The notes: generated by a model from the letters alone, not told the origin. Counted from the first letter of the stretch, positions 1 through 9,130 are shown. The stretch is 32,000 nucleotides of DNA from Candidatus Harpocratesius repetitus (GCA_021498095.1 JAIZWK010000001.1:1470001-1502000), one strand, 5' to 3'. A program made the numbers and translations.

Positions 1-377
1 AAGATATTATCGAAATAAGTCGTTTGCTAAATCTGATTTCACAGCACTATACTTCTCAAGCTTGCTTAGCTTCTCGAATTCCTTTTAATCTTCCTATTAC
101 GCCAGAATTATTACAGAGTATAGATAAAAGTGAAGCATTCATCCGCTCCTTACTTCCTAATAAGCATTCATCTTTACGTGTTCGAATTCAGCAATTGTTA
201 CCCACCAAACAACTACTCGCTCGAATCGAAGTGGGCTCAGATTTTTACAAACTTCTTTCAAACGCTGATACCCGCGCAAAAATTGTAAATAAACTGCGTG
301 AATATGGGTTTACTTATGTTACATTGGATTTAGAGGGATTTCATAGTGGTTCAATGCACAAAATGCTAGATGTTTGA
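1..377 (+). CDS. larE: ATP-dependent sacrificial sulfur transferase LarE, C-terminal part (5' end outside window)
   Basis: Frame is open from base 3. ACLASRIPF, RVR, ARIEV and GFTYVTLDLEGFHSGSM match the LarE C-terminus. TGA stop at 375-377. Confidence 0.85.
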   Translation, partial: DIIEISRLLNLISQHYTSQACLASRIPFNLPITPELLQSIDKSEAFIRSLLPNKHSSLRVRIQQLLPTKQLLARIEVGSDFYKLLSNADTRAKIVNKLREYGFTYVTLDLEGFHSGSMHKMLDV

Positions 378-454
378 AATCTGATTTCTAATATCTCTTG
401 TGAAATATTTTAATAAAATTATGGGAAAAAAAGGAAAATCCCCTCATACAGAGG

Positions 455-497
455 CGTCAGATTTTCTCCAAGGTTTATAGAAAATCATCATTCAACG
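455..497 (-). promoter_or_regulatory. SECIS element (eukaryote-like) in the 3' UTR of the 508-807 selenoprotein gene
   Basis: Minus strand reads CGTTG-AAT-GA-T-GATTTTCT-ATAAACCTTGG-AGAAAATC-T-GA-CG: AUGA/GA core, perfect 8-bp helix, apical AAA. Begins about 10 nt after the TAA stop. Confidence 0.85.
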
Positions 498-507
498 GAT
501 TTTTTGT

Positions 508-807
508 TTATGCTTCGACCAGCACTAAGCGTTTAAATGCTGCCCAGCCTGCAATGTCTATTTTTGCTTGAGTCCATAGATGTGCTAAGCGTTTATCCAA
601 ATAAATCGGATACTTAAATTTCTCTACTTTTTTTATTTCAAACGCATTTTTATCTTGAACCATTTCTTCACTGGCTGGTGCTACAACATTAACCACTTCT
701 GTGCCACATCAACCGCGGTAAATTCGTTGAAACACAACCAAAATTGGTTTCTCGAATTCTTTTGCTTGTTCTTCCATGTATGCGGAAGCCTCAGAGCTAA
801 TATGCAT
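508..807 (-). CDS. HesB/IscA-like (CC/Se-motif type) selenoprotein, 99 aa, Sec33 in R-G-U-C-G
   Basis: ATG at 807 is in frame with the 508-696 track ORF through one TGA (709-711): MHISSEASAYMEEQAKEFEKPILVVFQRIYRG-U-CGTEVVNVV...IYLDKRL...KIDIAGWAAFKRLVLVEA. SECIS lies directly downstream. Confidence 0.8.
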
Positions 808-1165: not shown

Positions 1166-1405
1166 TCAGCAAAATTCTGTTGATAAATATCTTTCTCCAG
1201 TGTCTGGAAAGACTGTAACAATATTATATTTCTGTGTTTTATCGAAATTTGATAATTGCGTTTCCAAAATTTCAATAAATTTAAACACACATGCTAAAGC
1301 AGCTCCTGAAGAAATTCCAACAAAGATTCCCTCATTTTTTGCCAGATAACGTGCATATAAAAATGCTTCCTGGTCTGAAATAGTTAGAATATAATCGATT
1401 AATTC
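1166..1405 (-). pseudogene. cysK: Cysteine synthase (CysK-type PLP enzyme) C-terminal remnant
   Basis: ELIDYILTISDQEAFLYARYLAKNEGIFVGISSGAALA...IVTVFPDTGERYLST. The frame is closed upstream by TGA and TAA, with no start and no N-terminal half. Confidence 0.8.
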
Positions 1406-1648: not shown

Positions 1649-2137
1649 ATGCCTCAAATGATAGGAATTGAATTAAATAAAGAGTTTAATAATCAAATTG
1701 TTGAAGAATTACGTTCAGGATATATCTATTTGGCAATGAGTGCATGGGCTGAACAACGGGGAATGCATAATTTTGCTGCTTTTATGAAGACTCATGCTGA
1801 AAAAGAAGAATATAAACACGCAATGAAATTTGTAAAATTCATTCAAGATGCTGGTGGTAAAGTAGAATATGGTGCTATTGAAAAAGTACCTTCTGATTGG
1901 GCGGATTTAGAAACAGTTTTGAAAGAAGCAATCAAGCACGAGCAGCATATTACTGCAAGAATAAAGATCTTATGGGATTTAGCAAAAAAAGAGAGTGAAG
2001 TTTACGCTTTTGAAATGTTGGGTTGGTTTTTGGAAGAACAAATGGAAGAAGAGAATCTTTTTGAAGATCTTCTTAGACAATATGAATTAACAGGTAAAAA
2101 AGATGGATACTGGGACCATAGAGTTCATCATCCGTAA
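1649..2137 (+). CDS. ftnA: Non-heme ferritin
   Basis: 162 aa with NQIVEEL..YIYLAMS, EEYKHAMKF, HEQHIT and WFLEEQMEEE ferroxidase-centre pattern. Confidence 0.9.
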   Translation: MPQMIGIELNKEFNNQIVEELRSGYIYLAMSAWAEQRGMHNFAAFMKTHAEKEEYKHAMKFVKFIQDAGGKVEYGAIEKVPSDWADLETVLKEAIKHEQHITARIKILWDLAKKESEVYAFEMLGWFLEEQMEEENLFEDLLRQYELTGKKDGYWDHRVHHP

Positions 2138-4495: not shown

Positions 4496-4600
4496 ATGAA
4501 TTAATTAAATTCAGTTGAATTCAACTTAAGAAACAGTCTTTTGGTGCAAATAAGTCCATGTTACAGGAATAATGTCATATATAAAAAAATCTTATTTACA

Positions 4601-4652
4601 TCAATGAAAATACTTCATAAATCTTGAGAAAATCAGGAAGAAGTGTTAGAGG
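4601..4652 (+). promoter_or_regulatory. SECIS element with apical mini-helix (type II-like) for the 4277-4495 gene
   Basis: TC-AAT-GA-A-AATACTTC-ATAAA-TCTTGA-GAAAA-TCAGGA-A-GAAGTGTT-A-GA-GG: AUGA/GA core, 8-bp helix with one G-U pair, AAA bulge and 6-bp mini-helix. Confidence 0.85.
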
Positions 4653-7465: not shown

Positions 7466-9130
7466 ATGCCTTTACCATCTTTGAATATTTTTGAAAAAAT
7501 GCGGGGATTATATACCCCTGTAATAAATATTAGGCGTCACGTTCTCTCTGAAGTAGGAAGAATGGTTGTCGAAGGAAGACCTCCACATTACATTGAAGAA
7601 ATACCTTATCGAGTAATTCCTAAATCAACACCAACTTATCGTGAATCTGTTTTCAAAGAAAGAGCAATTGTTAGAGAGCGGGTACGCTTAGCTTTTGGTA
7701 TGGATTTAAAGGAATACGGGGCCCATGGACCAATTCATGATGATGAAGTTGTTGAATGCATGAAACCTATTAAAATTCTTAAGCGGCCTATTGTTAATGT
7801 GATTAAAATCGGCTGCGAACGCTGTCCAGAAGAATCTTATTGGGTAACAAATCTCTGTCGCGGTTGTATTGCTCATCCTTGTGTAACTGTTTGTCCTAAA
7901 AATGCAGTTTCAATTCAAAATGGGCGTTCAGTTATCAATCAAGATTTGTGTATTCAATGTGGGAGATGTGCACAAGTATGTCCATATAATGCTATTGCCT
8001 TCCGCGAACGACCTTGTGCTTCTGCTTGTGGTGTCAATGCTATCGGTTCAGATGAAGAAGGCTATGCAAAAATTAATTACGAGAAATGTGTTTCATGCGG
8101 TCTTTGCATTGTTTCATGTCCATTTGGTGCAATAGCAGAAAAGTCCGAAATTGCCCAGATTATTTCATCCTTAAAAGCTGGAAAGAGGGTTTATGCTGAA
8201 ATTGCTCCTGCTTTTGTTAATCAGTTTGGACCATTAGTCACTCCTCCTAAAATTGTTGCTTCTTTGAAAAAAATGGGTTTTAAAGATGTAGTTGAAGTAG
8301 CTGCAGGTGCAGATAGAGTTGTTTTACAAGAAGCTCATGAATTAATAGAACTCATAAAGAAGCGTAAATCATACAGAATAGAAACAAGTAAAAAGAAAAA
8401 TCAGAATCTACCAGATAATTTAGAAAGTAATTTGAATATAGATTCGAAAGAAGTAGAAGATTCAGTGATAGATAGTACTGTAAACAAGACTTTTGTTGGA
8501 ACAAGCTGTTGCACTTCTTGGACATTGGCTGCAGAAAAGAATTTTCCTGAAATCACCGCTGCAAATATCAGTGAATCATTTGCACCAATGGTAGAAGCGG
8601 CTAAAATAATCAAAGAAAAAGACCATGAAGCCGTTGTAGTCTTTATCGGCCCTTGTATAGCAAAAAAAGAAGAGTGTTTTATTCCAAAAGTTGCTGAAGT
8701 TGTCGATTACGTAATGACTTTTGAAGAATTAGCAGCAGTTTTTCAAGCTTTTCATATTGATCCCACCAAAGTACCTCCAGATAATGATCTTCAAGATGCA
8801 TCTTCCCTTGGACGGGGATTTTCAGTTGCAGGAGGTGTTGCTGCAGCAGTAATTAAACAAACAAAAAAGATGCTTGAAGCGGATATTACCATTCCTCATG
8901 TATCAGTTGATACACTAAAAGAATGCATGGCATTGTTAAAAAAAGTAAAGCAGAATCGACTTGATCCTGCTCCCCTTTTAGTGGAAGGTATGGCATGTCC
9001 TTATGGCTGTATAGGTGGACCTGGAACGTTAGCTCCCTTGAATCGGGCAAAACGCGCTGCCCAGAAATATGCAAAGGAAGCCATCCATGAATATCCATCC
9101 GATTTTTCTTCAGCTGAATCTGATACTTGA
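7466..9130 (+). CDS. [FeFe]-hydrogenase (group B-like) with ferredoxin-type Fe-S motifs
   Basis: H-cluster motifs TSCCTSW, GPCIAKKEE and EGMACPYGCIGG. Three CxxCxxxxC/CxxCxxC ferredoxin motifs (CRGCIAHPC, CIQCGRC, CVSCGLC). Confidence 0.9.
   Translation: MPLPSLNIFEKMRGLYTPVINIRRHVLSEVGRMVVEGRPPHYIEEIPYRVIPKSTPTYRESVFKERAIVRERVRLAFGMDLKEYGAHGPIHDDEVVECMKPIKILKRPIVNVIKIGCERCPEESYWVTNLCRGCIAHPCVTVCPKNAVSIQNGRSVINQDLCIQCGRCAQVCPYNAIAFRERPCASACGVNAIGSDEEGYAKINYEKCVSCGLCIVSCPFGAIAEKSEIAQIISSLKAGKRVYAEIAPAFVNQFGPLVTPPKIVASLKKMGFKDVVEVAAGADRVVLQEAHELIELIKKRKSYRIETSKKKNQNLPDNLESNLNIDSKEVEDSVIDSTVNKTFVGTSCCTSWTLAAEKNFPEITAANISESFAPMVEAAKIIKEKDHEAVVVFIGPCIAKKEECFIPKVAEVVDYVMTFEELAAVFQAFHIDPTKVPPDNDLQDASSLGRGFSVAGGVAAAVIKQTKKMLEADITIPHVSVDTLKECMALLKKVKQNRLDPAPLLVEGMACPYGCIGGPGTLAPLNRAKRAAQKYAKEAIHEYPSDFSSAESDT

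Follow-up and report, generated by a model that had tools for sequence, protein, structure and literature searches.

Positions 807 to 508 on the minus strand of a 32,000-nucleotide stretch of the Candidatus Harpocratesius repetitus genome (GCA_021498095.1, JAIZWK010000001.1:1470001-1502000; hereafter the window) almost certainly form, on sequence grounds, a single gene for a 99-residue selenoprotein in which codon 33, a UGA, is recoded as selenocysteine (Sec). The protein is predicted to have the IscA/HesB (A-type carrier) fold, and the putative recoding signal is a eukaryote-like Asgard SECIS element (lokiSECIS, or eSECIS-like type I) in the 3' untranslated region (3'UTR). A Sec-based role in redox chemistry, sulfur transfer or Fe-S carriage is likely, and the overall explanation that we favour on balance is a recoded IscA-fold selenoprotein that acts as a chalcogen relay serving LarE, the product of the convergent neighbouring gene (Table 1).

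Table 1 Features of the selenoprotein locus, in window coordinates
Feature	Position	Strand	Basis
Selenoprotein gene, 99 codons plus TAA stop (510-508), ATG at 807-805	508..807	-	Frame and full-length homologues whose codon 33 is TGA or Cys
TGA, putatively read as Sec33	709..711	-	Invariant in orthologues; aligns with Cys of CC homologues and with the IscA ligand Cys
TGT codon of Cys34, the protein's sole cysteine, next to Sec33	706..708	-	Translation and alignment
Core and upper region of the SECIS: AUGA (491-488), U, helix II (486-479 with 467-460), loop AUAAACCUUGG (478-468), U, GA (458-457)	457..491	-	
Lower stem (503-497 with 441-435), enclosing a further small hairpin (454-442) together with the SECIS	435..503	-	MFE fold
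Oligo-T tract CCTTTTTTTCCC, likely an archaeal transcription stop past the SECIS	423..434	-	Sequence only
3' part of convergent larE (full gene L001:498-1364)	1..377	+	TIGR00268, 222.8 bits (cut-off 150)

The original prediction held that a 62-residue open reading frame (ORF) extends through one TGA to an ATG-started protein of 99 residues with an adjacent Sec-Cys pair, G-U-C-G. The minus-strand frame bears this out, being open throughout save for a single in-frame TGA (711-709, codon 33); the shorter ORF, from GTG 696 to 508, is the post-TGA portion of the gene, and the product carries the motif R-G-U-C-G-T at residues 31-36, with Sec33 next to Cys34. The latter is invariant in our alignment (A1), where the corresponding residue of a U-U paralogue is a second Sec displayed as C, and in the wider family the position is taken by U, G, S, L or T.

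Comparison with orthologues indicates that both sides of the TGA are conserved as protein. Relative to an orthologue from the same genus, codons 1-32 differ at 5, 4 and 16 sites in codon positions 1, 2 and 3, respectively, and codons 35-99 at 12, 7 and 38. Across genera the Arg, Gly and Gly codons flanking the TGA vary synonymously, and the TGA and TGT are fixed. Two doubts attached to the prediction, that residues 1-32 might lack homology to family members and that translation might start at GTG 696, find no footing here: residues 1-32 are conserved in homologues, and we see no evidence favouring the GTG 696 start. Among 30 loci that were read out, the TGA lies at the identical hairpin position in all 28 TGA-bearing genes, within local motifs that include RGUCG, SSUCG, GUGG, TUGG and R[ST]USG, and the remaining two (L039 and L043) have Cys at the Sec position (QACAG).

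Homologues in protein databases were sought by word-indexed and exhaustive searches. Many entries are fragments of 37-62 aa that start past the TGA, the truncated entries including P0004, P0006, P0007, P0009 and P0017; the first of these is a 95%-identical relative whose public entry has the same truncated call. Other homologues, about 100 aa long and covering the whole query, show W at codon 33 (P0002, P0003, P0005, P0008, P0010, P0013 and P0023), which is the TGA read through by a caller using another code. The search for CC-type homologues that had been suggested as a check yielded several, all single ORFs, with Cys-Cys at the Sec position (P0011, P0012, P0020, P0022 and P0025) or G-C-C-S (P0015). 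The TGA aligns with Cys in these CC homologues, with protein conservation on both flanks. Two long database proteins, P0016 and P0026, were judged spurious, having matched via a short repeated hairpin-like stretch only.

The convergent larE gene itself ends in TGA at window position 377, so that TGA serves as a normal stop codon in this genome. An alternative genetic code in which TGA means Trp or Gly was rejected, as TGA ends larE and other genes, and is further disfavoured by the gene's only TGA sitting at a Cys-equivalent codon. Machinery for Sec incorporation is encoded in the same genome, with a tRNA-Sec (59.8 bits), a TGA-containing SelD, SepSecS and a SelB-type factor.

It could still be argued from the way standard gene calling splits the locus, and from the truncated database entries, that there is no selenoprotein, the TGA ending a 32-aa peptide that is followed by a separate 62-aa protein from GTG 696, or the locus being a decaying pseudogene. 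This is highly improbable in view of the coding-type conservation 5' of the TGA, the fixation of the TGA across genera and its occurrence, once or twice per gene, in 66 of the 77 family matches from a six-frame search of 400 Asgard genomes. It also sits poorly with CC homologues that are single ORFs, with a SECIS that accompanies TGA genes and is missing after Cys forms, and with the confident AlphaFold2 (AF2) folding of the full-length sequence as one domain, to which residues 1-32 contribute a helix and a sheet strand. Selenoprotein status is strongly supported: the TGA and the N-terminus are conserved, homologues with Cys exist, the SECIS goes together with the TGA, and the genome encodes the Sec machinery.

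The AUGA core of the SECIS starts 16 nt past the last base of the stop codon. Its stem has 8 Watson-Crick pairs and, next to the core, a U-U, and the apical loop of 11 nt, AUAAACCUUGG, ends in G. The lower stem starts 4 nt beyond the stop codon, and the original placement of the SECIS at about 10 nt was thus roughly right. A SECIS-like pattern occurs 49 times on both strands of the 4.36-Mb genome, with about 3e-4 expected per 60-nt stretch. Of the 30 TGA-bearing family genes whose 3'UTR could be read, 22 carry the element at a distance of 11-50 nt from the stop by one fixed rule (AUGA, a helix of 6-9 bp, an A-rich loop, then GA, or AA in four cases), and the same rule detects no SECIS in the expected 3' position of the two Cys-form genes. 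Under this rule there is also no canonical element behind the paralogue L002, nor behind L027, L028, L031, L038 and L044; by eye, the 3'UTR of L044 seemingly contains a bulged version.

Covariation in helix II is evident across the family. At least ten different helix sequences occur, all of them pairing, as in GAUUUUCU/AGAAAAUC, GCAAAUC/GAUUUGC, CCCGCCCG/CGGGCGGG and UCUCUCUU/AAGAGAGA. The covariation score is 0.663 compared with 0.224 in shuffles, none of 500 reaching 0.663, and slid pairing scores at most 0.472. A covariance model (R1) matches window positions 451-497 on the minus strand at 33.2 bits. The MAFFT alignment behind the first covariance model was out of register by one column on the 3' side, and the 75.8% of cells paired in that model therefore understates the helix. 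The loops of the genome's VhuD (GUAAACUUUGU) and SelD (GUAAACUUUGAG) SECIS elements closely resemble AUAAACCUUGG.

Several further observations concern these RNA elements. The SelD gene (C1:3802493-3803323, minus strand; L010) has an in-frame TGA and a SECIS-like hairpin, with helix GGAGAGAA/UUUUCUCC and loop GUAAACUUUGAG, that is preceded by ACGA, not AUGA. Elsewhere in the window, the SECIS model has a second, weak match on the plus strand (4598-4644, 16.1 bits), and the pattern scan matches 4604-4650 on the same strand (AUGA, an 8-bp helix and GA). The three-helix layout of the 3'UTR, inspected by eye, recurs in seven orthologues (L019 and L021-L026) with differing complementary sequences, lower-stem pairs including AAACUCAAU/AUUGAGUUU and CCAAUCGU/ACGAUUGG. 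Rfam models at gathering thresholds have no match anywhere in the window; at E values up to 10, weak matches resembling C/D-box snoRNAs fall on the SECIS, which fits a K-turn motif in its core.

The published lokiSECIS consists of AUGA, a stem of nine positions, a loop of 11 nt with an A-rich start and a final G, and a closing GA (PMC4989117). The window element shares with lokiSECIS and eSECIS-like type I elements (PMC4989117, PMC11227280) the stop-proximal 3'UTR site, the AUGA, the nine-position stem, the 11-nt loop and the GA. It differs from lokiSECIS in a loop that opens with AUAAA rather than AAAAA and in the U-U at the first stem position. In addition, a lower stem that covaries, as judged by eye, encloses a second hairpin with the SECIS, and we found no account of this layout in the text of PMC4989117 or PMC11227280.

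The family extends well past this locus, its matches in the six-frame search coming from 53 of the 400 Asgard genomes. In the taxonomic family to which the window belongs, 12 of 13 sampled genomes have matches, with several paralogues each, and orthologues of the window copy are found in two cultured organisms, Promethearchaeum syntrophicum MK-D1 (near 3,777,938 of NZ_CP042905.2) and Lokiarchaeum ossiferum (near 2,054,814 of CP104013.1). The Ca. H. repetitus genome, assembled as one contig of 4.36 Mb, has three further paralogues, all with TGA, of which two are of the U-C type and one is U-U. The closest subfamilies retain a vicinal pair (U-C, U-U or C-C), and more distant members have U-G or U-S, which implies that the vicinal pair is not the universal active unit of the family. 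By published surveys, Asgard archaea have 5 to 7 selenoprotein families and archaea as a whole have 11 (PMC4989117, PMC11227280, PMC13188914). The original prediction knew of no such family among lokiarchaeal selenoproteins, and the four lists of Lokiarchaeal and Asgard selenoproteins consulted (PMC4989117, PMC11227280, PMC13188914, PMC9723677) indeed do not contain it, nor do the results of full-text literature searches.

The two Cys forms (L039 and L043, in G174 and G175) each follow immediately on a TGA-bearing paralogue as a tandem pair, and that paralogue's own SECIS lies between the tandem genes (covariance-model matches at L039 1839-1885 and L043 608-654). On a broader scale, Cys-type IscA-like genes with Cys/Gly-rich tails occur in taxonomic families f14-f17, which lack the Sec family, and the reverse is seen in families f1-f7, f21 and f28, where the Sec family is present and such Cys-type genes are absent, a pattern in which kinship is uncontrolled.

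Structure prediction, which had been suggested as a check, gave a confident AF2 model with an IscA/SufA fold (pLDDT 95.4, built on 17 family members), in which the hairpin formed by strands 21-32 and 35-46 has U33-C34 at its tip. Among the best 12 Foldseek matches, ten are structures of the IscA/SufA/HesB type. In VIA-align comparisons the model superimposes on Escherichia coli IscA (1s98) with Z 9.9 and an r.m.s.d. of 2.9 Å over 90 residues, followed by SufA (Z 9.5) and DsrR (Z 8.5), the next unrelated chain reaching Z 3.3. Profile-profile alignment by hhalign with ordinary IscA-like proteins of other Asgard families returns a probability of 89.9% (E 1.7e-6) and lays G-U-C-G on G-C-S-G, so that Sec33 would occupy the position of the first cluster-ligand Cys. 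Sequence searches of the PDB with the family profile and with one relative produced chance matches only.

The protein therefore shares with the A-type carriers IscA, SufA and ErpA (PF01521; 1s98, 1r94, 2d2a, 1x0g) a predicted fold (Z 9.4-9.9, 85-90 residues aligned) and profile-profile homology. It departs from them in having Sec for Cys and an added adjacent Cys, in lacking their C-terminal Cys-x-Cys, Cys34 being the only cysteine, and in matching no Pfam family, PF01521 included.

Among curated families, the profile search that had also been proposed places the protein nearest to NF041239 (NCBIfam 'Moor_selen_rel'; Pfam PF28096, CC_Se_fam), the CC/Se motif family first predicted in Moorella thermoacetica. 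Residues 2-95 match profile positions 4-87 of 91 colinearly (E 9.8e-8) at 32 bits, below the 40-bit cut-off, as are all Asgard orthologues (19-37.5 bits); 16 of the 28 Asgard-type relatives match this model. It is the only significant NCBIfam model, the other listing for the protein being NF006418 (E 0.15). Two Cys homologues bear weak or faint PF28096 marks, and the CC homologues align with U-C and are themselves sub-threshold on NF041239; a review lists the motif as CxxU (PMC13188914). Judged from these sequence matches, the protein appears to be a divergent Asgard branch of NF041239, a bacterial family with which it has in common a length of about 91-100 aa, the full-length colinear match and, putatively, a vicinal Cys/Sec motif. 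The differences are that NF041239 is listed as bacterial only, with a SECIS within the coding region and the Sec motif CxxU (PMC13188914), whereas the Asgard protein has U-C and a eukaryote-like SECIS in the 3'UTR.

The HesB/IscA-like label of the original prediction thus holds for fold and remote homology and fails for membership of TIGR01911, the classical HesB-like selenoprotein family known from methanogens and bacteria. That the protein is nevertheless an orthologue of this family seems barely credible, even though both have the same fold, a Sec at the first conserved hairpin Cys, a U-x-G motif (UxGP is listed in PMC13188914) and a small single domain. TIGR01911 has no match to the protein at E up to 1, none among the genome's four paralogues at E up to 0.1 and none over the cut-off in any of the 400 Asgard genomes, where its weak matches are TGA-free genes in other families; NF041239 is, as noted, the sole NCBIfam model significantly matched. 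The Asgard motif is U-C-G-T and that of TIGR01911, which ranges over Methanococcales and bacteria, is U-x-G-P.

A vicinal pair of this kind also occurs in mammalian thioredoxin reductase, whose C-terminal redox centre is Gly-Cys-Sec-Gly and can form an eight-membered selenenylsulfide ring. By analogy, the glycine-flanked pair of the Asgard protein may behave similarly; it differs in the Sec-Cys order and in its predicted beta-hairpin site, as opposed to a flexible C-terminal tail, and belongs to an unrelated fold with no homology to the enzyme.

The neighbourhood of the gene offers leads to its function. As originally noted, the gene converges on larE, and the encoded LarE has an SGGxDS P-loop and a CXXC-C triad, with C106, C109 and C186 invariant in 7 orthologues; orthologues across genera are 44-47% identical to it and keep both the loop and the triad. 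Every orthologous locus with enough flank has a convergent larE 90-130 nt away, including those of MK-D1 and L. ossiferum, and the opposite flank is not conserved. This amounts to 8 of 8 loci from the genome search, and to 7 of 8 named loci, the eighth being a paralogue. In Thermotoga LarE the CXXC-C triad binds a [4Fe-4S] cluster that an outside donor must recharge with sulfane sulfur (PMC9283937). A larC homologue lies elsewhere in the genome (4,322,610-4,323,995), and larA-like genes are also apart from larE. Beside the paralogues, a thioredoxin gene directly adjoins in 6 loci from two taxonomic families, mostly just downstream on the same strand. No consistent gene context emerges for the Cys homologues, whose contigs were of insufficient length or differed too much, and one Cys homologue adjoins genes for an ArsR-family regulator and a DGC-domain protein.

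Other genes of the surroundings are recorded here for completeness. For the genome's larE, the selenoprotein gene is the sole conserved neighbour. The selenoprotein gene has a ferritin gene 840 bp away (window 1649-2137, plus strand; PF00210, 105 bits), a neighbourhood common to L019, L026, L059 and L065 and not found at the Promethearchaeum loci. Window positions 1166-1405 on the minus strand match only the C-terminal end of a PLP-dependent, cysteine-synthase-like enzyme (PF00291 positions 237-276) and are probably a gene remnant, having no upstream N-terminal part. Further along, positions 7466-9130 on the plus strand encode an [FeFe]-hydrogenase-like protein with ferredoxin-type 4Fe-4S domains (PF02906, 183.7 bits).

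From the thioredoxin genes beside the paralogues, the convergent gene for a CXXC-C LarE and the vicinal pair of the closest subfamilies, we tentatively propose that the Sec-Cys pair is a chalcogen relay, reduced by thioredoxin, which in the case of the window copy may serve the neighbouring LarE. Sec33-Cys34 would cycle between the selenol/thiol and selenenylsulfide states, or would carry sulfane sulfur as Se-S-S, and thioredoxin would re-reduce the pair. The window orthologue would hand sulfur or reducing equivalents to the adjacent [4Fe-4S]-type LarE which, needing an external sulfane-sulfur donor, would then make the nickel-pincer cofactor. The selenoprotein gene and larE are convergent and hence not co-transcribed, and all larE-pairing loci belong to one taxonomic family, so that shared ancestry could explain the pairing. 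The narrower claim, that the protein is a dedicated donor of sulfane sulfur (or of a cluster) to the [4Fe-4S]-type LarE of Lokiarchaeia, seems rather unlikely; if true, this would be the first selenoprotein known in a cofactor sulfur-insertion pathway, that of nickel-pincer nucleotide synthesis.

An Fe-S carrier role accounts for the observations nearly as well as the chalcogen relay, and we consider it a serious if somewhat unlikely candidate. Here the protein would form a dimer in which Sec33 and Cys34 of each chain supply four ligands for a [2Fe-2S] or [4Fe-4S] cluster, to be passed for instance to LarE, which is of the cluster-dependent type (PMC9283937). The IscA/SufA fold and the position of Sec on the IscA ligand Cys are what such a role would predict, and four of the 28 relatives, more distant ones, have PF01521 matches that stay below the cut-off (at most 22 bits against 26.3). 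The distant relatives L033, L037 and L044 have C-terminal cysteines that recall the IscA tail, the complementary distribution of Cys-type IscA-like genes (f14-f17) and the Sec family points the same way, and a ferritin gene is close by. The genome itself, searched with PF01521, has no match over the cut-off and thus no canonical A-type carrier, but such carriers are missing from many archaea anyway. The absence from the window protein of the C-terminal Cys-x-Cys that defines A-type carriers, with Cys34 as its sole cysteine, speaks against this role, as does the adjacency of thioredoxin genes, which suggests redox cycling; we also know of no characterised precedent for Sec as an Fe-S cluster ligand.

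The predicted exposure of a vicinal dichalcogenide on a hairpin would equally suit a chaperone for soft metals or metalloids, in which Hg, As, Ni, Cu or the like would be bound by Sec-Cys and then passed on or sequestered. IscA has been crystallised as a mercury derivative (1r94), one Cys homologue has the ArsR-family and DGC-domain neighbours mentioned above, and LarE is itself part of a nickel-cofactor pathway. We regard this role as improbable, because these indications are circumstantial and come from single cases, no metal transporter, reductase or regulator adjoins the gene or its orthologues, and the conserved neighbours are instead LarE and thioredoxin, the two partners in the chalcogen relay that we prefer.

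The lokiSECIS selenoproteins, the IscA/HesB superfamily and the CC/Se family were already known. In this study, we describe the presence, breadth and paralogue expansion of the family in Asgard archaea, a Sec-Cys pair at the IscA ligand position and a conserved pairing with LarE, all of which are new. Gene callers systematically split the genes of this family in two, and since all Asgard orthologues lie under the curated cut-off, automatic annotation probably misses them. The family supplies further natural examples of the eukaryote-like SECIS, and its presence in two cultured Asgard archaea makes direct tests possible, the conserved pairing with a cluster-dependent LarE providing a concrete biochemical hypothesis. 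The use of Sec in Asgard archaea is thereby extended from hydrogenase, Hdr and peroxiredoxin chemistry to a carrier protein with the predicted shape of IscA.
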